A DNA stretch of 64,000 bases from Eledone cirrhosa (Eukaryota): the NCBI GenBank assembly GCA_964016885.1, contig OZ024741.1, positions 224,936,001 through 225,000,000 of the forward strand, in the 5' to 3' direction. Under the pieces are notes generated by a model that saw only the letters and a program-made list of their open reading frames with translations, was not told where the DNA came from and searched no databases. Below, piece after piece: positions 16,200-61,930 of this stretch. The translations under genes and the position numbers were made by a program. Every line of letters begins with the position of its first letter. Positions within the stretch are counted from its first letter, which is position 1.

Positions 16200-16344
16200 G
16201 ATGAGAATGGGGAGGAAGGGGGGGAGGGGGAGGGGAGGGAATCTAAAGAGAAAGAAGACAACTATAGAACGGTGTTGACAAAATCTTTTGATCCGTTTCT
16301 ACAGAGCAGAGCGGTAAAGATGAAAGAACGAAGTGATCATTTGT

Positions 16345-17200
16345 GTGTGTACGTGTGAGTGTATGTGTGTATATGTGTGTACGTGTGAGTGTATATGTGT
16401 GTCTGTGTGCGTGTATGTCTGTATATGTGCGTGTACTTGTATATGTGTGTCCGTGTATACGAGAATGAGTGTGTGCATATGTGTGTCCGTGTATACGAGT
16501 GTGAGTGTGTGTCTGTGCGTGTATGTTTGTATATGTGTGTACGTGTTTGAGTGTATATGTGTGTCTGTGTGCGTGTATGTCTGTATATGTGCGTGTACTT
16601 GTATATGTGTGTCCGTGTATACGAGAATGAGTGTGTGCATATGTGTGTCCGTGTATACGAGTGTGAGTGTGTGTCTGTGCGTGTATGTTTGTATATGTGT
16701 GTACGTGTTTGAGTGTATATGTGTGTCTGTGTGCGTGTATGTCTGTATATGTGCGTGTACTTGTATATGTGTGTCCGTGTATACGAGAATGAGTGTGTGC
16801 ATATGTGTGTCCGTGTATACGAGTGTGAGTGTGTGTCTGTGCGTGTATGTTTGTATATGTGTGTACGTGTTTGAGTGTATATGTGTGTCTGTGTGCGTGT
16901 ATGTCTGTATATGTGCGTGTACTTGTATATGTGTGTCCGTGTATACGAGAATGAGTGTGTGCATATGTGTGTCCGTGTATACGAGTGTGAGTGTGTGTCT
17001 GTGCGTGTATGTTTGTATATGTGTGTACGTGTTTGAGTGTATATGTGTGTCTGTGTGCGTGTATGTCTGTATATGTGCGTGTACTTGTATATGTGTGTCC
17101 GTGTATACGAGAATGAGTGTGTGCATATGTGTGTCCGTGTATACGAGTGTGAGTGTGTGTGTCTGTGCGTGTATGTTTGTATATGTGCGTGTACTTGATA
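16345..17200. repeat. 162-bp minisatellite, ~5 copies, built from degenerate GT repeats
   Basis: The gagaatgagt marker occurs at 16461, 16623, 16785, 16947 and 17109. Confidence 0.9.
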
Positions 17201-31114: not shown

Positions 31115-31167
31115 GAACCGGCCCAGATGTGAGATGTAGCAAAACTCCCAACCTGGAGAAAAGATCC

Positions 31168-32768
31168 AGGCTAGATGTGAAATGTAGGTAATAGGCACAG
31201 GCTAGATGTGAAATGTAGGTAATAGGCACAGGCTAGATGTGAAATGTAGGTAATAGGCACAGGCTAGATGTGAAATGTAGGTAATAGGCACAGGCTAGAT
31301 GTGAAATGTAGGTAATAGGCACAGGTTAGATGTGAAATGTAGGTAATAGACACAGGCAGGATGTGAAATGTAGGTAATAGGCACAGGCTAGATGTGAAAT
31401 GTAGGTAATAGGCACAGGCAGGATGTGAAATGTAGGTAATAGGCACAGGCTAGATGTGAAATGTAGGTAATAGGCACAGGCAGGATGTGAAATGTAGGTA
31501 ATAGGCAGAGGCTAGATGTGAAATGTAGGTAATAGGCACAGGCTAGATGTGAACTGTAGGTAATAGGCAGAGGCTAGATGTGAAATGTAGGTAATAGGCA
31601 CAGTCTAGATGTGAAATGTAGGTAATAGACACAGGCAGGATGTGAAATGTAGGTAATAGGCACAGGCTAGATGTGAAATGTAGGTAATAGGCACAGGCAG
31701 GATGTGAAATGTAGGTAATAGGCACAGGCAGGATGTGAAATGTAGGTAATAGGCACATGCAGGATGTGAAATGTAGGTAATAGGCACAGGCAGGATGTGA
31801 AATGTAGGTAATAGGCACAGGCTAGATGTGAAATGTAGGTAATAGACACAGACTAGATGTGAAATGTAGATAATAGGCACAGGAAGGATGTGAAATGTAG
31901 GTAATAGGCACAGGCTAGATGTGAAATGTAGGTAATAGGCACAGGCTAGATGTGAAATGTAGGTAATAGGCACAGGCAGGATGTGAAATGTAGGTAATAG
32001 GCATAGGCTAGATGTGAAATGTAGGTAATAGGCACAGGCTAGATGTGAAATGTAGGTAATAGGCACAGGCAGGATGTGAAATGTAGGTAATAGGCACAGA
32101 CTAGATGTGAAATGTAGGTAATAGGCACAGGCAGGATGTGAAATGTAGGTAATAGGCACAGGCTAGATGTGAAATGTAGGTAATAGGCACAGGCTAGATG
32201 TGAAATGTAGGTAATAGGCAGAGGCTAGATGTGAAATGTAGGTAATAGGCACAGGCAGGATGTGAAATGTAGGTAATAGGCACAGGCTAGATGTGAAATG
32301 TGGGTAATAGGCACAGGCAGGATGTGAAATGTAGGTAATAGGCACAGGCTAGATGTGAAATGTAGGTAATAGGCACAGGCAGGATGTTAAATGTAGGTAA
32401 TAGGCACAGGCTAGATGTGAAATGTAGGTAATAGGCACAGGTTAGATGTGAAATGTAGGTAATAGGCACAGGCTAGATGTGAAATGTAGGTAATAGGCAC
32501 AGGTTAGATGTGAAATGTAGGTAATAGGCACAGGCAGGATGTGAAATGTAGGTAATAGGCACAGGCTAGATGTGAAATGTAGGTAATAGGCACAGGCAGG
32601 ATGTGAAATGTAGGTAATAGGCACAGGCTAGATGTGAAATGTAGGTAATAGGCACAGGCTTGATGTGAAATGTAGGTAATAGGCACAGGCAGGATGTGAA
32701 ATGTAGGTAATAGGCACAGGCTAGATGTGAAATGTAGGTAATAGGAACAGGCAGGATGTTAAATGTAG
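31168..32768. repeat. 31-bp satellite, ~52 copies
   Basis: aggc(ta/ag)gatgtgaaatgtaggtaataggcac repeated contiguously without spacers. Confidence 0.95.
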
Positions 32769-49630: not shown

Positions 49631-51064
49631 TTACAGAGAGAGGGTGGTGTTGGTGGGAGTGGGAGGATAGGGTAGGGGTAGTGGATAGGGGTGTATATTT
49701 GGTTGAGAGATGCCTAGTGACTGTAGGTTTCGCTTTGTACAGAGGCAAGGCGAGTCTTCTGTATTACTGCGTAGCGCCAAAGATCTCGGTCCAATTGTCT
49801 TGGAGAGGTGCAAGTGTGTAAGGTCGGAATTTATCATCTCGTCCCTGGTTTTTCTGGGTCTACGTACTCCGTAACTACCATCAATTTTGATCGCCCTGCA
49901 CTTTTTTATGCAGCTGTCGTCTTTCATGCGCATCGCCTGACCATACCAACGTAGTCTTCTCTCAAGTAAACAGCATCTGATCCCTCTTATTCCTAATTTC
50001 TCACTTAGTTCATTTATGTTTTGCCGTTCACGTATATTACTATTACACATCCAACGGAGCATGCATGCTTCATTCTTTTCCAGTCTGCGCAGGTCCTCTG
50101 CACGCAATGCCCATGTCTCACTGCCATGTAGCATTGCTGTTCGTATACATGCATCATACAATCTGCCTTTTATTTTTAGAGAGAAACGTTTTGTGGCCAA
50201 CAACGGTATAAGCTCTCTGAACCTTTTCCACGCCGTTCTGACTCTGGCTACTGTACTTTCAGAACACCCTCCACCACTTCTGATTCCGTCACCCAGGTAA
50301 CGGAAAGTGTCTACTATTTCTATAGAACAATCTGGGCAATAGAAGGAGCTAGTATCCTGTGGACACTTGCTACTTATTGCATCTGAGCATTGGCCACATA
50401 TAAAGTCTACGTTCTTAGATAGTTTACCTGTGATCCCACTACATGTTTTATGCACCCATACTTTGCATTTGGGACACAAAATGGAATTTCTGCCTACGCC
50501 TTTCTTACACACTGAGCATGGCCATTTCCCTGGGGACACCTGTGCCCTATTTTCCTTTCTACAAACTAGAAGTTTAGTCTTAGACAAGTTAACTTTAAGG
50601 CCTTTTGATTCTAGGCCATGCTTCCATGTTTGGAATTTCTTCTCTAGTTCAGCCACTGATTCAGCTATGAGCATTAGATCATCTGCGTATAGGAATTCCC
50701 ATGGGCATCCGGTCTTGAACTCCTCTGTTATAGCCTGAAGGGCAATACTAAATAGGAGGGGGCTAAGGACAGAGCCTTGATGAACGCCAACTTTTACACT
50801 AAATTCTTCACAATATTCATTGTTAATTCTAACCTTACTGACTGTTTTATTATACATGGCTTGTATAGCTCTCACAAGCCATTCATCTACACCTAGTTTT
50901 CTAAGAGCCCACCAGATAATGGCGCGGAGGACTCTGTCAAAAGCTTTCTCCAGGTCCACAAACCTAAGTAGAGGGGTACTTTTAGCTAGGTACTTCTCTT
51001 GTAGTTGTCGTACAAGGAGCGTCTGTGGTACTTTTACCTGACACAAACCCAAACTGCATTTCAT
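49631..51064 (-). pseudogene. RTE ORF2, RT core with inserted PHD finger and C-terminus
   Basis: FVDLEKAFD, GVHQGSVLSPLLF, LYADD, FRYLG, HGSETW and RRLRWYG. A C4HC3 PHD sits between the RT motifs. Confidence 0.9.
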
Positions 51065-51767
51065 CTAGATCAATTAGCTCTCTGATTAGTTGCGCTATAA
51101 TTCTTTCTGTGACCTTCAGGACCTGGTCAACCAACTTAATGCCTCTATAGTTTCCCCTATCTAGAGCATCCCCTTTACCCTTGCAGCAGTTAATGATGCT
51201 GCTGCTACGCCAGTCTTTCGGTATGACCCCATTCTGTATTACTTGGTTAACTATACGGGTGACCATAGTGTGTCCCACCATACCAGATGCCTTCAACATC
51301 TCAGCAACTATCTCCGAAGGCCCAGCTGCCTTGCCTGTCTTCATATCTTTGATTGCCTTACTTATTATACTACCTTTAACTTGCACCGCTGGTCCTTCTA
51401 TTGGATCGATTTGGGGCACACTATCTTTTTCCCATTTATTCTCCTCATTTAATAGCCTCTCGTAGTGACACTTCCAGGCTATCTTCTTATCAGTATCAGT
51501 GAGGGCAAGTACACCGTTATCATTACGGACACACTTCTCCCCGACAATATCACAGTTTTCCTTGAAACATTGTCTAGCAATCCTGAACACCTCACGTTTT
51601 TGGTTCTCACGTTGTAGAATATGCTTGAACTTTCTATCCTCTTCTTCCCTTTTTGCAAGGTACACTTGTCTCCTAGCTACTCTCCTGACCACTTGATAGT
51701 GTTCTCTACTTCCCCCATCCTGCCATACTTTCCAAGCCTGCTTTTTGGCTTTGATTGTCTCTTCCAC
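50982..51767 (-). pseudogene. RTE ORF2, linker and RT N-terminal part
   Basis: MKTGKAAGPSEIVAEML, PKDWRSS, KGKGD...NYRGIKL, QFGFVSGKSTTDA. Frameshift near 51020. Confidence 0.88.
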
Positions 51768-51982
51768 CTTACTGTTCCACCACCAAGTTACTCTCCTCCT
51801 GCCAATAGGTCTATTTAAAACAGCACCTACGTACGTTTCGCCCGGATGGACTTCTCAAGGGCATAAATAGCTAAAAGTGTTCCTTGCATGGCCCGGAAAG
51901 TGTTTTTGGAGGTAAGTTCACGTCAGAGTTCATTCTTCGCCAAAAAAGCGTGTTTTGATTTTGCAGTAGGTCAAGGGAGGTA

Positions 51983-52802: not shown

Positions 52803-53452
52803 GTTGTAGGTGTTCTAGTTGTTGTTACTGTTGTTATTGTTATTGTGACTTACAGTTGTCACTTCTATTTATTGTTATCATCTGGAAGTTATAACAGTGC
52901 AGTTCTTGTTATTGTTATTACTGCTGCTACTGTTGTTGCAGCTGTCGTTGTTGTTGTTGTCATCATTTAGCCCCAGGTCAACCCTGATCCAACAAATCTC
53001 TTGTCAAATCTGTTCAGAACTGTGATCATTCTGTCTGTTGTTGTTTTTTGGTTTTTTTTTTTTTATTGACATATAACTACATTATCTACGATAGAGGTTC
53101 TGAAAATGGGGCTCTATCCGACCCCCAGGGGCATTGCGAAGGTCCAGGTGATCGCTGGCGCCTGAGGGGGCGGCTAGGTGGAGAGGGTGGTAGAGATGGT
53201 ATAATAGTATATTAAATATGAAACGATTTATATATATACAAGTTCTTTCGTTACTTTGGTATTGTGTGGTTGGGTTTTGCCTACCGCAAGTTCAATTTGT
53301 CAATCTATTTAAACGTATGTTAATACTCTAAGGACCTACCCTTATTGAGTGCTTTGCTAACTCATTCCTATTGTAGGTCGACTTTGTTTGCCCACAGCCA
53401 AAGCTTCGATTTTACTAAGCTTCCACTTATATATATATATACAATAGAAAAT

Positions 53453-53790
53453 GAAAAATCAGTGATGCATCTGAACTCAATTTATTGTGTGTTACAATTG
53501 TTTCCCCGACGGACAGCTCGAGACGCGATCATTGTGTGGATTTGTCTGATTCTGGACCCGCAGGTTGGATGGACACAGCTAATGATCTCGGAGCATATGC
53601 TCTGAAATCATTAGACAGATCCACACAATGATCGTGTCTCGAGCTGTCCGCCGGGGAAACGATTGTAACACACAATAAATTGAGTTCAGATGCATCACTG
53701 ATTTTTCGTTTTATATTTTATCATACTCTGCTCTGTAAGAGCATAGAATGCTCAACCGGCATACCGCCTTTGGAAGCATCTTAGCTACCA
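53453..53790. mobile_element. Fold-back element with ~95-bp inverted arms; related copy at 55698-55905
   Basis: 53453-53547 is inverted at 53613-53707. 55698-55905 shares the left arm and the ctctgctctgtaaga...ggcataccgcct tail. Confidence 0.75.
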
Positions 53791-53793
53791 TCA

Positions 53794-53956
<163 letters not shown>

Positions 53957-54249
53957 ACATATATATATGAAAATAGGGAGAAAAATACGATTATTAGGAA
54001 GAAAAATATATTTTTTTATTTTTATTTTTCTCTTTTTTTCTGGGTTAGAAAATCTTTAAAACAAAATATTTTACTTTGTGTGAAGTGTTAAGGTATTAAT
54101 TAATTTATTTATTAATTAACAATGGTATTTATTTTTTTATTTATATATTTAATAATTGTCTATTACCGGTTTCAGCATTTTATGCATTATCAAAGGTAAC
54201 TCTTTAGAGAATATCGGAATTTGGTTTTGCTTCATTGTTCGTTCCAGTT

Positions 54250-55150
54250 TTAGTTTAGTCCGAAGTTTAGTCCATTAAGTAGAGGTTGGAATTTGTTAAT
54301 GAAGTACGTTTCCTTACTGGTACGATGGATGAAAGAAGCGTTGTCTATGAATTTGTAAATGGGGAAAATTTTTAATTGTGGATGTTGGTTAGGTGTACAA
54401 TTGGCGATATGTTCACTAAAAGAAATCTTTCTGTATACCTGTATTTTTATTTGTGATCTATGGACTGTCATACGTTGTCGGAGGCTGTTTTTTGTTTGTC
54501 CTATGTAGTGCTCTTGACAACCTAAGCAGGTCAAAACATTGATTAGATTTTCAGATGCACATGTAAAGTTGTGTTTAACTGTGAAATGTTGTCCTTGTTT
54601 AAAATGGAATGTTGAACCTTCTATTAGATTTATGCATATACCACAGTTGGGCCTTCCGCATTTTTTTACTGTAGGGTTCATTGTGAGGGTTGGTTGGATT
54701 TTGGCTTGTGTGAGGATGTTTTTTATGGATTTAGGTTGTCTTTTGCTCTTTATGATGTTGTGTGTTTGGAGGATTTTGTTCATTCTTGGGTCTCTTTTTA
54801 GTAAAGGAATGTTCTGGAGGATGGTGTCGAATGCCTCATTGTTGAGGAGGTTGTGTGTGGAGATGTATGGTAGAGTTTTCTGTTGCGGTTCATTCCTGGG
54901 TTTGGGGTGTCTGAGTTCCTGGATGTTGAGTTTTAGGGCACGTTGGAATCCATTGTTGATTAGGGATGGTGGGTAGTTTCTGCTGATAAGTGTGTTCTTT
55001 AATTCTTCTAGTCGTGTGTAGCATGTGTATTTATCTGAAACTATTGTGCAGATCATTCTGGCTAGGTTATAAGGAATTGCCATTTTGGTATGGCGAGGTT
55101 GACACGAGTTAAATGGAAGATATTGTTTGGAGTCTGTGGGTTTGTACTAT
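54250..55150 (-). pseudogene. Penelope-like element (Neptune-type) RT thumb, Cys linker and GIY-YIG endonuclease; 5'-truncated
   Basis: In-frame KPTDSKQYLPFNSCQPRHTKMAIPY upstream of the annotated Met. CGRPNCGIC...FTCASENLINVLTCLGCQEHYIGQTKNSLRQRMTVH...KETYFINKFQPLLN. Confidence 0.9.
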
Positions 55151-55284: not shown

Positions 55285-56209
55285 AACAAATAGAGGTGTA
55301 ACACACGAGTTGTGATATATTTGTAAAAGGAAAAGAAAATGCTGACAAATTTTTCCCAGTGAAAAATAGTTTAATTAGGAATAAGTATAAATTAGTAATA
55401 AGTATTGGTTAGTATTCAGTTTTAGTTTTAAGTTTTTACCGGTTGCGCATTTCTAATGCTTTTCAAAAATAATTTTGAGATAGAGCGCTCGTGATGTTTG
55501 CTCTAATCTGAACAGTTTTGGAAATTCTTCCTGTTTTTATGTGAAAAAAGTGGCTCCAGATTTGGTTGGTTGTTGAATGTCACGTGAATGAGTACTATAC
55601 ATTTCGCGCCAATTCGTGTTGCAAAAATTCTTGTTGTCAAAACAATTTTGATATATATATATACATATATATATATACATATATATATATAATATAAAAC
55701 GAAAAATCAGTGATGCTCAATTTATTGTGTGTTGCAATTGTTTCGCCGGCGGACAGCTCGAGACACGATCATTGTGTGGATCTGTCTGATTCTGGATCTG
55801 CAGGTTCGACGGACACGTCAAATTATTTCGGAGCAAAGTCTCTCACTCTGCTCTGTAAGAACATAGAGTACTCAACCGGCATACCGCCTATGGAAGCATA
55901 GCTACCCCCCCCCCCCACACACAGACATATATATATAAATATAGTAAAATATAAAATATATATTATATATCTATACATAGTATATATTATATTATTCGTT
56001 TTTTAATTTGTTTTGCGAGATTTCTTATGTGAAAATGCGTGTTGAAACAGATATCGTTATACTTTGGGAGAGTCATGTTGCCAATAAAAACAAACGCATC
56101 TGTTAGTTTTCACTTCAATTTAATATAAGTTTCCGGTTGGCTGGTTGGTTCGATAATGAGAATGTTGTTTATATATTGTGAAAGCTCTTTCGTCACACAT
56201 TCTGTGACC

Positions 56210-56253
<44 letters not shown>

Positions 56254-56256
<3 letters not shown>

Positions 56257-57829
56257 TATAGACATAGAATATTCGAAAATATTCTGTATGTTTATAATAA
56301 ACATTTTGAAGACCTAATCGCTATAGAATAGAATACGTCACGTATTACAATTAGATTCTCGATAAAAGCAAGGGAAGTAATCTACGCGTTTCATTCTTGT
56401 TAGAATTCATCAGGACTACATATCCAGTGCTTTTATCGAGAATGACACAGCTAGAGACTTATAGAATACTTAGCTGTGTACTGGAACTGGTTTGAAAGAG
56501 CGGTTGCCGGTCCGGCAGAAATTAGAAATTGGAATAAATGCTCTGAAATAGCGATATATATGTGAGTATAGACATAGAATATTCGAAAATATTCTGTATG
56601 TTTATAATAAACATTTTGAAGACCTAATCGCTATAGAATAGAATACGTCACGTATTACAATTAGATTCTCGATAAAAGCAAGGGAAGTAATCTACGCGTT
56701 TCATTCTTGTTAGAATTCATCAGGACTACATATCCAGTGCTTTTATCGAGAATGACACAGCTAGAGACTTATAGAATACTTAGCTGTGTACTGGAACTGG
56801 TTTGAAAGAGCGGTTGCCGGTCCGGCAGAAATTAGAAATTGGAATAAATGCTCTGAAATAGCGATATATATGTGAGTATAGACATAGAATATTCGAAAAT
56901 ATTCTGTATGTTTATAATAAACATTTTGAAGACCTAATCGCTATAGAATAGAATACGTCACGTATTACAATTAGATTCTCGATAAAAGCAAGGGAAGTAA
57001 TCTACGCGTTTCATTCTTGTTAGAATTCATCAGGACTACATATCCAGTGCTTTTATCGAGAATGACACAGCTAGAGACTTATAGAATACTTAGCTGTGTA
57101 CTGGAACTGGTTTGAAAGAGCGGTTGCCGGTCCGGCAGAAATTAGAAATTGGAATAAATGCTCTGAAATAGCGATATATATGTGAGTATAGACATAGAAT
57201 ATTCGAAAATATTCTGTATGTTTATAATAAACATTTTGAAGACCTAATCGCTATAGAATAGAATACGTCACGTATTACAATTAGATTCTCGATAAAAGCA
57301 AGGGAAGTAATCTACGCGTTTCATTCTTGTTAGAATTCATCAGGACTACATATCCAGTGCTTTTATCGAGAATGACACAGCTAGAGACTTATAGAATACT
57401 TAGCTGTGTACTGGAACTGGTTTGAAAGAGCGGTTGCCGGTCCGGCAGAAATTAGAAATTGGAATAAATGCTCTGAAATAGCGATATATATGTGAGTATA
57501 GACATAGAATATTCGAAAATATTCTGTATGTTTATAATAAACATTTTGAAGACCTAATCGCTATAGAATAGAATACGTCACGTATTACAATTAGATTCTC
57601 GATAAAAGCAAGGGAAGTAATCTACGCGTTTCATTCTTGTTAGAATTCATCAGGACTACATATCCAGTGCTTTTATCGAGAATGACACAGCTAGAGACTT
57701 ATAGAATACTTAGCTGTGTACTGGAACTGGTTTGAAAGAGCGGTTGCCGGTCCGGCAGAAATTAGAAATTGGAATAAATGCTCTGAAATAGCGATATATA
57801 TGTGAGTATAGACATAGAATATTCGAAAA
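56254..57829 (-). repeat. 310-bp hammerhead-ribozyme tandem array, left arm (5 units plus partial)
   Basis: The gacatagaat marker occurs at 56261, 56571, 56881, 57191, 57501 and 57811. Minus-strand hammerheads start at 56377-56419 and recur every 310 bp. Confidence 0.95.
56377..56419 (-). ncRNA. Minimal type I hammerhead ribozyme (first of 5 minus-strand copies: 56377, 56687, 56997, 57307, 57617)
   Basis: Reverse complement of 57966-58008. Confidence 0.9.
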
Positions 57830-60800
57830 ATCGCTATTTCAGAGCATTTATTCCAATTTCTAATTTCTGCCGGACCGGCAACCGCTCTTTCAAACCAGTT
57901 CCAGTACACAGCTAAGTATTCTATAAGTCTCTAGCTGTGTCATTCTCGATAAAAGCACTGGATATGTAGTCCTGATGAATTCTAACAAGAATGAAACGCG
58001 TAGATTACTTCCCTTGCTTTTATCGAGAATCTAATTGTAATACGTGACGTATTCTATTCTATAGCGATTAGGTCTTCAAAATGTTTATTATAAACATACA
58101 GAATATTTTCGAATATTCTATGTCTATACTCACATATATATCGCTATTTCAGAGCATTTATTCCAATTTCTAATTTCTGCCGGACCGGCAACCGCTCTTT
58201 CAAACCAGTTCCAGTACACAGCTAAGTATTCTATAAGTCTCTAGCTGTGTCATTCTCGATAAAAGCACTGGATATGTAGTCCTGATGAATTCTAACAAGA
58301 ATGAAACGCGTAGATTACTTCCCTTGCTTTTATCGAGAATCTAATTGTAATACGTGACGTATTCTATTCTATAGCGATTAGGTCTTCAAAATGTTTATTA
58401 TAAACATACAGAATATTTTCGAATATTCTATGTCTATACTCACATATATATCGCTATTTCAGAGCATTTATTCCAATTTCTAATTTCTGCCGGACCGGCA
58501 ACCGCTCTTTCAAACCAGTTCCAGTACACAGCTAAGTATTCTATAAGTCTCTAGCTGTGTCATTCTCGATAAAAGCACTGGATATGTAGTCCTGATGAAT
58601 TCTAACAAGAATGAAACGCGTAGATTACTTCCCTTGCTTTTATCGAGAATCTAATTGTAATACGTGACGTATTCTATTCTATAGCGATTAGGTCTTCAAA
58701 ATGTTTATTATAAACATACAGAATATTTTCGAATATTCTATGTCTATACTCACATATATATCGCTATTTCAGAGCATTTATTCCAATTTCTAATTTCTGC
58801 CGGACCGGCAACCGCTCTTTCAAACCAGTTCCAGTACACAGCTAAGTATTCTATAAGTCTCTAGCTGTGTCATTCTCGATAAAAGCACTGGATATGTAGT
58901 CCTGATGAATTCTAACAAGAATGAAACGCGTAGATTACTTCCCTTGCTTTTATCGAGAATCTAATTGTAATACGTGACGTATTCTATTCTATAGCGATTA
59001 GGTCTTCAAAATGTTTATTATAAACATACAGAATATTTTCGAATATTCTATGTCTATACTCACATATATATCGCTATTTCAGAGCATTTATTCCAATTTC
59101 TAATTTCTGCCGGACCGGCAACCGCTCTTTCAAACCAGTTCCAGTACACAGCTAAGTATTCTATAAGTCTCTAGCTGTGTCATTCTCGATAAAAGCACTG
59201 GATATGTAGTCCTGATGAATTCTAACAAGAATGAAACGCGTAGATTACTTCCCTTGCTTTTATCGAGAATCTAATTGTAATACGTGACGTATTCTATTCT
59301 ATAGCGATTAGGTCTTCAAAATGTTTATTATAAACATACAGAATATTTTCGAATATTCTATGTCTATACTCACATATATATCGCTATTTCAGAGCATTTA
59401 TTCCAATTTCTAATTTCTGCCGGACCGGCAACCGCTCTTTCAAACCAGTTCCAGTACACAGCTAAGTATTCTATAAGTCTCTAGCTGTGTCATTCTCGAT
59501 AAAAGCACTGGATATGTAGTCCTGATGAATTCTAACAAGAATGAAACGCGTAGATTACTTCCCTTGCTTTTATCGAGAATCTAATTGTAATACGTGACGT
59601 ATTCTATTCTATAGCGATTAGGTCTTCAAAATGTTTATTATAAACATACAGAATATTTTCGAATATTCTATGTCTATACTCACATATATATCGCTATTTC
59701 AGAGCATTTATTCCAATTTCTAATTTCTGCCGGACCGGCAACCGCTCTTTCAAACCAGTTCCAGTACACAGCTAAGTATTCTATAAGTCTCTAGCTGTGT
59801 CATTCTCGATAAAAGCACTGGATATGTAGTCCTGATGAATTCTAACAAGAATGAAACGCGTAGATTACTTCCCTTGCTTTTATCGAGAATCTAATTGTAA
59901 TACGTGACGTATTCTATTCTATAGCGATTAGGTCTTCAAAATGTTTATTATAAACATACAGAATATTTTCGAATATTCTATGTCTATACTCACATATATA
60001 TCGCTATTTCAGAGCATTTATTCCAATTTCTAATTTCTGCCGGACCGGCAACCGCTCTTTCAAACCAGTTCCAGTACACAGCTAAGTATTCTATAAGTCT
60101 CTAGCTGTGTCATTCTCGATAAAAGCACTGGATATGTAGTCCTGATGAATTCTAACAAGAATGAAACGCGTAGATTACTTCCCTTGCTTTTATCGAGAAT
60201 CTAATTGTAATACGTGACGTATTCTATTCTATAGCGATTAGGTCTTCAAAATGTTTATTATAAACATACAGAATATTTTCGAATATTCTATGTCTATACT
60301 CACATATATATCGCTATTTCAGAGCATTTATTCCAATTTCTAATTTCTGCCGGACCGGCAACCGCTCTTTCAAACCAGTTCCAGTACACAGCTAAGTATT
60401 CTATAAGTCTCTAGCTGTGTCATTCTCGATAAAAGCACTGGATATGTAGTCCTGATGAATTCTAACAAGAATGAAACGCGTAGATTACTTCCCTTGCTTT
60501 TATCGAGAATCTAATTGTAATACGTGACGTATTCTATTCTATAGCGATTAGGTCTTCAAAATGTTTATTATAAACATACAGAATATTTTCGAATATTCTA
60601 TGTCTATACTCACATATATATCGCTATTTCAGAGCATTTATTCCAATTTCTAATTTCTGCCGGACCGGCAACCGCTCTTTCAAACCAGTTCCAGTACACA
60701 GCTAAGTATTCTATAAGTCTCTAGCTGTGTCATTCTCGATAAAAGCACTGGATATGTAGTCCTGATGAATTCTAACAAGAATGAAACGCGTAGATTACTT

Positions 60801-61886
60801 CCCTTGCTTTTATCGAGAATCTAATTGTAATACGTGACGTATTCTATTCTATAGCGATTAGGTCTTCAAAATGTTTATTATAAACATACAGAATATTTTC
60901 GAATATTCTATGTCTATACTCACATATATATCGCTATTTCAGAGCATTTATTCCAATTTCTAATTTCTGCCGGACCGGCAACCGCTCTTTCAAACCAGTT
61001 CCAGTACACAGCTAAGTATTCTATAAGTCTCTAGCTGTGTCATTCTCGATAAAAGCACTGGATATGTAGTCCTGATGAATTCTAACAAGAATGAAACGCG
61101 TAGATTACTTCCCTTGCTTTTATCGAGAATCTAATTGTAATACGTGACGTATTCTATTCTATAGCGATTAGGTCTTCAAAATGTTTATTATAAACATACA
61201 GAATATTTTCGAATATTCTATGTCTATACTCACATATATATCGCTATTTCAGAGCATTTATTCCAATTTCTAATTTCTGCCGGACCGGCAACCGCTCTTT
61301 CAAACCAGTTCCAGTACACAGCTAAGTATTCTATAAGTCTCTAGCTGTGTCATTCTCGATAAAAGCACTGGATATGTAGTCCTGATGAATTCTAACAAGA
61401 ATGAAACGCGTAGATTACTTCCCTTGCTTTTATCGAGAATCTAATTGTAATACGTGACGTATTCTATTCTATAGCGATTAGGTCTTCAAAATGTTTATTA
61501 TAAACATACAGAATATTTTCGAATATTCTATGTCTATACTCACATATATATCGCTATTTCAGAGCATTTATTCCAATTTCTAATTTCTGCCGGACCGGCA
61601 ACCGCTCTTTCAAACCAGTTCCAGTACACAGCTAAGTATTCTATAAGTCTCTAGCTGTGTCATTCTCGATAAAAGCACTGGATATGTAGTCCTGATGAAT
61701 TCTAACAAGAATGAAACGCGTAGATTACTTCCCTTGCTTTTATCGAGAATCTAATTGTAATACGTGACGTATTCTATTCTATAGCGATTAGGTCTTCAAA
61801 ATGTTTATTATAAACATACAGAATATTTTCGAATATTCTATGTCTATACTCACATATATATCGCTATTTCAGAGCATTTATTCCAA

Positions 61887-61893
<7 letters not shown>
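57830..61893 (+). repeat. 310-bp hammerhead-ribozyme tandem array, right arm (13 units plus partial); retrozyme-like
   Basis: The tcgctatttc marker occurs every 310 bp from 57831 to 61861. This arm is the reverse complement of the left-arm unit. Confidence 0.95.
57966..58008 (+). ncRNA. Minimal type I hammerhead ribozyme (first of 13 plus-strand copies, last at 61686-61728)
   Basis: gtagtc-CTGATGA-attct aaca agaat-GAAA-cgcg-TA-gattac. 6-bp stem I, 5-bp stem II and ACGCGT palindromic stem III. Predicted cleavage after GUA at 58002. Confidence 0.92.

Positions 61894-61930
<37 letters not shown>

Follow-up and report, generated by a model that had tools for sequence, protein, structure and literature searches.

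Why does a tandem array of identical hammerhead ribozyme units reverse its orientation in the middle of a (TA)n tract? The question is raised by a window of 64,000 nucleotides of Eledone cirrhosa (the whole stretch of DNA that was analysed; assembly GCA_964016885.1, contig OZ024741.1, positions 224,936,001 to 225,000,000), in which a 310-nt unit is repeated 5.09 times on the minus strand and then 13.11 times on the plus strand. All copies are identical, with zero mismatches, and the array carries no variant between units. A preliminary description of this DNA had proposed two opposed arms around 34 nt within (TA)n, and the exact comparison agrees: the perfect inverted arms are 1543 nt each (56253-57795 and 57830-59372), with zero mismatches, 34 nt between them (57796-57829) and the junction at 57829/57830. 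This 'spacer' is not foreign: the left arm itself finishes with these 34 nt, at unit phases 310 down to 277. The mapping of the arms and of the ribozyme strand also bears out that the left arm stops in a hairpin loop and that, the ribozyme strand being minus in the left arm and plus in the right one, both RNA 3' ends point outward. The features of the array, in window coordinates, are the following:

56217-56252, no strand: left (TA)n target remnant, from the sequence
56253-57829, minus: left arm, 1577 nt, 5.09 units; outer end at site A (phase 303), inner 5' end at phase 277
57796-57829, minus: 34 nt unpaired in the palindrome, the inner end of the left arm, stopping in a hairpin loop
57829/57830, no strand: head-to-head junction, blunt
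57830-61894, plus: right arm, 4065 nt, 13.11 units; inner 5' end at phase 1, outer end at site B (phase 35)
57942-58030, plus: type I hammerhead of the first plus unit, extended stem I, one per unit (motif; fold z = -7.0)
at 57972, plus: hammerhead core CUGAUGA of the first plus unit (motif)
after 58002, plus: predicted hammerhead cut of the first plus unit
58132-58141, plus: site A of the first plus unit, the unit's own (AU)4 run; putative annealing point of a (TA)n primer
61862-61894, plus: one-sided 'tail', from site A to site B, only at the right end of the insertion
61895-61925, no strand: right (TA)n target remnant, from the sequence

The window junction has neither overlap nor insert, and its sequence is absent from all other loci examined. 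Beyond the (TA)n, the outer flanks of the array differ from each other.

The unit has a GC content of 34.5%, and the insertions are made of it alone. Within the array we found no open frame of at least 90 aa; the element is thus non-autonomous, without the ORF with RT and GIY-YIG domains by which an autonomous PLE is recognised. Its properties are those of the non-LTR retrozymes: a unit within 150-450 nt, GC below 50%, no coding frame, and no LTR/PBS/PPT layout. By motif and fold, every unit holds a type I hammerhead with a stem I of six pairs inside a 16-pair extension, the CUGAUGA core, a five-pair stem II and GAAA, and pattern counts across the genome show that the multimeric copies are dispersed, two further retrozyme traits. 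The hammerhead folds with z = -7.0, and the 310-nt unit folds well as a circle (z -4.4 and -5.1, with 60 shuffles per strand). Rfam HH9 matches all 18 of the 18 full units weakly (23 bits, E 0.049, for a gathering score of 52 bits). The cut is predicted at UA, after phase 173. Helix III is short and palindromic, so that cleavage would probably take place in dimers; the accessible part of PMC4209133 describes this ribozyme form for animal retrozymes and holds that it is thought to cleave as a dimer. Rfam microRNA matches over the junction were rejected as hairpin look-alikes, far below their gathering scores.

Across the 3.0 Gb genome of Eledone cirrhosa, 434 matches to the unit were obtained from 40 of 119 candidates. 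Pattern counts over the whole genome gave 1085 strict short (A) ends and, on the reverse strand alone, 792 long (B) ends, which implies more than 1000 insertions. From these loci we examined 121 regions, about 100 of them from one contig (C1): the window and 21 regions chosen by identity, 39 with the first 40 distinct B-end matches on C1, and 60 with the next 61 A-end matches on C1. They contain 112 insertions in which a minus arm is followed by a plus arm, i.e., head-to-head. The plus-then-minus order occurs in none of the 121 regions except in a duplicated junction piece in L051; eight regions have a single arm, one has two plus arms, and two are cut by a region edge or a gap. The window array therefore follows the rule of its family: it is one of more than 1000 insertions, and nearly all those examined are built alike. 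The preliminary description had noted neither this recurrence nor the published precedent for the layout. The recurrence of the layout in 112 insertions rules out a unique event, and this layout is the published signature of PLEs: an inverted 5'-truncated copy adjoining the 5' end, a tail on one end, and a microsatellite target. Tracts of at least (TA)5 lie on both flanks of 108 of the 112 insertions. Target-site duplications gave no signal (13/109 vs 10/150 in the control), the (TA)n making a duplication unreadable. The arms average 4.7 units in length, with a maximum of 22.9, and at 72 of 108 loci neither arm is shorter than two units.

The outer ends of these insertions lie at two fixed sites of the unit. 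Site A is its own (AT)4 run (phases about 299-2), and site B spans phases 26-35 (mostly 28, with one end at 22). One A end and one B end are found in 108 of the 109 insertions with both ends visible, a further three being cut off by the region fetched, and the rule holds whichever way the loci were sampled (18/19 by identity, 36/36 by B end, 54/54 by A end). The exception, L035, has two A-type ends and different haplotypes in its arms. The B end is about 26-35 nt longer than the A end, which corresponds to the known tail of PLE-type insertions (30-40 bp on one end). In the window, site A is at the left end and site B at the right end. The outer ends had been described as lying at different points of the unit, arbitrarily permuted. 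The first part stands (phases 303 and 35); the second does not, since the difference reflects the pairing of a site A with a site B rather than random entry on a circle. Random permutation of the outer ends is ruled out across the family by the fixed sites; only the inner (5') ends are scattered.

The same pairing of ends leaves practically no room for an assembly artefact. Fold-back chimeric reads would mirror one flank and one end, whereas the two flanks here are unlike and one end is A, the other B (108/109 loci). Moreover, nearly all junctions are unique, and in public contigs of sample S1 (TA)n adjoins site A as well as site B. On the other side, no contig of four public runs spans the window junction, a gap that proves nothing.

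The inner ends are scattered over the unit, with a mild excess at phases 187-310 (p 0.02) and no avoided region. They are not enriched at the ribozyme cut site (5 vs 7.9 expected), and so give no sign of template jumping between linear monomers, where inner ends would pile up at that site. Copying proceeded across the cut site in 1058 passes with no indel at phases 172-175. The junctions often show short overlaps: among the 81 free of inserts, 54% have an overlap of at least 2 nt, against 18% for random joins. Inserts occur at 31 of the 112 junctions, and several resemble nearby unit sequence. Only one pair of loci among the 112 (L037 and L081) shares a junction verbatim; their haplotypes differ, and A and B are swapped.

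These ends, together with the lengths of the arms, bear on a published model in which the copy primes itself by folding back on an antisense template and an endonuclease resolves the hairpin to give the tail (PMC3846280). The model predicts identical arms with one haplotype, of nearly the same length, with inner ends close together and errors mirrored between the arms. Arm lengths agree within 60 nt in 8 of 108 loci (4.4 in shuffles), and the two lengths are weakly correlated (rho 0.29), i.e., largely independent. Yet the A arm is longer than the B arm in 54 of 108 loci, and the difference exceeds one unit in 75 of 108 (A longer in 34, B in 41). The inner ends fall within 15 nt of each other in 10 of 112 insertions, when 11.2 are expected, and only 2 of 72 rare variants have a mirror counterpart on the other side of the junction. 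Hence, self-priming is largely refuted for these arrays and we deem it highly improbable as their general origin, although it may hold for a few equal-armed loci such as L142.

Because both arms are multimers of a variable 310-nt unit, their variants report on the template. At every informative site that they share, the two arms of a locus are the same in 110 of the 112 insertions (the exceptions are L035 and L087), whereas arms of different loci agree in 16%, and the best of 10000 permutations reached 31. The 93 insertions on C1 include 36 haplotypes. Of 20 variants private to one locus, 19 are present in both arms and the other one was not covered. Such private variants can extend over the whole array, as in L170 (24/24 units) and L073 (18/18). 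A variant found in every unit of both arms requires a bottleneck through a monomer, and a circle supplies one.

A minority of loci have a different pattern. In L142 and L151 a rare variant is common to the outermost unit of both arms only, a pattern that a monomer circle explains less well than would a linear multimer template or conversion between the arms. L061b has a rare variant in each arm, at unrelated positions. In L146 and L062, variants lie in scattered units of one long arm, which suggests growth or homogenisation of some arms once they had been inserted. One site of L087 (phase 139) is mosaic: the four outer units of one arm have A and all later units have G. These loci may have arisen from a linear multimer, or by later conversion or unequal exchange. 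A/G mosaic sites within one array (L062 at phase 218, L069 and L087 at phase 139) could also represent an edited base read variably on one template; they are not significant as a class. For A-to-I editing of the template, the locus-wide changes (10 A>G vs 5 T>C) are not significant (p 0.12), an early hint in a smaller sample (6 vs 1) having weakened with more loci. Singleton changes on the ribozyme strand are biased to T>C (22 T>C vs 8 A>G, p 0.04 uncorrected), as expected from G:U errors on a sense RNA.

The most serious alternative to a circular template is PLE twin priming on a long, linear, uncleaved array transcript, with both RTs beginning in a single unit and reading the same units upstream of it. 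The rare variants that L142 and L151 share in the first round of both arms are what it predicts. According to the accessible parts of two sources, uncleaved RNA is the main substrate of a purified PLE (PMC11167929), and a weak helix III may cleave poorly (PMC4209133). Against it, rare variants are common to both arms in the same round in only 4 of 67 cases, the other 63 being unshared. The 36 array-wide haplotypes in 93 insertions and the 20 private variants would demand frequent passage through a monomer. Copying beyond the junction of the source array should pass that junction on, and among 112 there is one verbatim pair, with different haplotypes. Daughter arrays, finally, could never exceed the arms of their source in length. 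We therefore regard the linear template as unlikely, if clearly the best placed of the alternatives.

The arms might instead have been short in an initial two-armed PLE-type insertion and have expanded later, by unequal exchange or slippage. In L146 and L062, the variants that scattered units of a long arm have in common are in line with this, and a satellite model is discussed for retrozymes in the accessible text of 10.64898/2026.07.22.740005. Across the sample, only nine variant sites in 7 of 112 loci recur in a subset of units, and the window array is variant-free. The 72 of 108 loci with at least two units in both arms add to the difficulty, and a tandem seed would be needed in each arm, itself requiring the copying of more than one unit. 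Later expansion as the general explanation thus seems very improbable.

We consider it probable that the window array arose when a 310-nt hammerhead retrozyme was inserted head-to-head into (TA)n, likely in a single event, in which a Neptune-type PLE RT-endonuclease likely cut both strands and likely used the two 3' ends to copy one RNA, most likely a monomeric circle, repeatedly. The preliminary description had proposed priming from both strands, a single event and several rounds on a circular template; the family-wide evidence, read from genomic DNA, favours all three. Under this scenario, tandem transcripts would self-cleave and then be ligated into circles. The PLE protein, probably a dimer bound to a conserved region some 130-165 nt downstream of the cut site, would nick both strands of a (TA)n run. 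One primer would start at site A, on the (AU)4 of the unit, and the other at site B, 26-35 nt further 3'; each site would be used by one primer because both lie on the same RNA. Both RTs would then circle in the same direction, displacing strands as they go, and the number of rounds before they stop would vary (5 and 13 here). The two cDNA 3' ends would be joined, often through 1-6 nt of microhomology or short inserts, and gap filling would yield the palindrome. The more specific version of this scenario, to which we give slightly better than even credence, is that a single PLE dimer takes up one circular ribozyme RNA at two start sites that exclude each other, with double rolling-circle reverse transcription from both ends of the cut (TA)n, and that the arrays are the genome-wide record of this process.

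Several elements of this scenario are published: retrozymes and their circles, a proposed PLE-driven rolling-circle copying, the head-to-head layout of PLEs with one tail, and their priming on both strands. For animal non-LTR retrozymes, a circular template and mobilisation by PLEs have already been proposed (PMC7229834; PMC7761336; 10.64898/2026.07.22.740005, accessible parts), so far on the basis of co-occurrence and sequence trees. The present family resembles them in its non-coding tandem units of 150-450 nt with GC below 50% and one type I hammerhead each, and, as far as the accessible text of these sources goes, in its stable fold, dispersed multimers and co-occurrence with PLEs. Unlike them, described in the same texts as head-to-tail only, its insertions in (TA)n are palindromes of two arms whose outer ends are fixed at A and B. 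The words 'inverted', 'orientation', 'opposite' and 'microsatellite' have 0 occurrences in the main text of PMC7229834 in the form accessible to us.

The likeness to endonuclease-bearing PLEs of the Neptune/Naiad type is equally close: an inverted 5'-truncated copy placed head-to-head, a 30-40 bp tail on one end (10.1101/2021.04.23.441226; PMC3846280; PMC11167929), a (TA)n bias, a hammerhead upstream of the RT starts, and both strands cleaved and extended. In contrast to these elements, the family has no ORF, the whole element is one 310-nt unit, and both arms are multimers (up to 23 units). According to the accessible text of PMC11167929, AT-rich DNA is cut and extended on both strands by a purified PLE, and copying begins at two neighbouring internal sites separated by the length of the tail; that text gives no strand difference in the start site and does not report the pairing per insertion. 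Published PLE work, in its accessible parts, terms the mechanism of the tandem and inverted structures undefined.

In L1 twin priming, both target strands prime and the two cDNAs join by microhomology, which gives an inversion. The arrays share with it the both-strand priming, the microhomology join and the inversion. They differ in that here this is the rule (112 insertions in 121 regions), the start sites are fixed with a spacing of about 30 nt, poly(A) is lacking, and every arm is longer than one template. A literature search over mostly open-access main texts found no report of two-armed retrozyme arrays; within the same scope, neither the one-A-one-B rule tied to a shared template nor PLE twin priming on a circle was found.

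The variants indicate that both target strands were extended on the same RNA, in most cases a single monomer, from two fixed sites. These findings argue against the published self-priming model, and the 310-nt unit offers a small substrate for an in vitro test. If true, double rolling-circle reading would explain at once the movement of retrozymes, the head-to-head insertion of PLEs, and the presence of a tail on one end only. With these insertions the genome has acquired near-perfect palindromes of kilobase scale, on the order of a thousand of them, and the arrays are predicted to form long dsRNA wherever they are transcribed.

We searched the genome for coding partners by their GIY-YIG domain (10595 first-look candidates, 150 scored, 50 loci fetched). 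One locus (L121) has a frame of 938 residues with an RT, a C-terminal GIY-YIG and a CX4CxxC linker, in a copy that is not intact. The linker is a mark of Neptune/Nematis and suggests a Neptune-type PLE. In this family, 8 of 8 adjacent pairs in the fetched loci consist of a minus arm followed by a plus arm, one end being short and the other long; the two ends are 68 nt apart, and 5714 exact long (B) ends lie in (TA)n. Its terminus has the same eight letters as the B end of the window array, a weak likeness. Identity between arms in the older PLE family (0.87-0.97 within loci vs a mean of 0.91 across loci) does not discriminate. None of the 50 GIY-YIG loci contains a coding PLE with sequence similarity to the 310-nt unit, the matches being sister non-coding families, so that the partner PLE is deduced from the layout only. 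In one such sister retrozyme family, 68-82% alike around sites A and B, 30 loci read by eye yielded 15 two-armed cases, and 13 of these share the layout.

The 3' repeat of the L121 PLE (L121:3273-3500, minus) shows by eye a hammerhead-like fold with a non-standard core and a palindromic helix III, about 80 and about 140 nt upstream of the two ends of the PLE. At L048:5626-5655, the inner end of a single retrozyme arm is joined to 29 nt that also lie beside the PLE in L121, followed by (TA)n; this is possibly one insertion made from two different RNAs. Other hammerhead tandem families, with units of about 490 nt and shorter, are present in the fetched loci (L133:7818-9901, L130:6871-8038).

The unit was also encountered in public runs (X1-X20): 20 runs, spread over 18 organism codes, contain it at 54-93% of the sampled words. 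No run recorded as RNA is among them. Three of the runs (X4, X5 and X14) have the unit as one 340-nt contig with a single haplotype, closed on itself in X4 and X14. A Hi-C run of the organism of X14 has 0 reads with the unit in 1.9 Gb, and Hi-C run X21 has 0 reads placed in the roughly 1/100 of it that was sampled. Library carry-over, a free RNA circle or horizontal spread could each account for the unit in these runs.

The window itself holds other elements near the array. A 5'-truncated fragment of what appears by eye to be a Neptune-type PLE, with linker and GIY-YIG motifs, lies at 54250-55146 (minus) and about 53950-54250; it has no Pfam match, and its 3' repeat ends in a TA/CA run. A related piece of PLE 3' repeat is found at 55435-55632. 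A 283-nt non-coding, self-inverted insertion at 53439-53721, similar to 55676-55843, is probably another short head-to-head element of PLE type. Further away are two frames of a LINE-type RT with a PHD finger (49631-51854, minus) and three other tandem arrays (484-1825, 16343-17187 and 31167-32768), with periods of 192, 162 and 31 nt.
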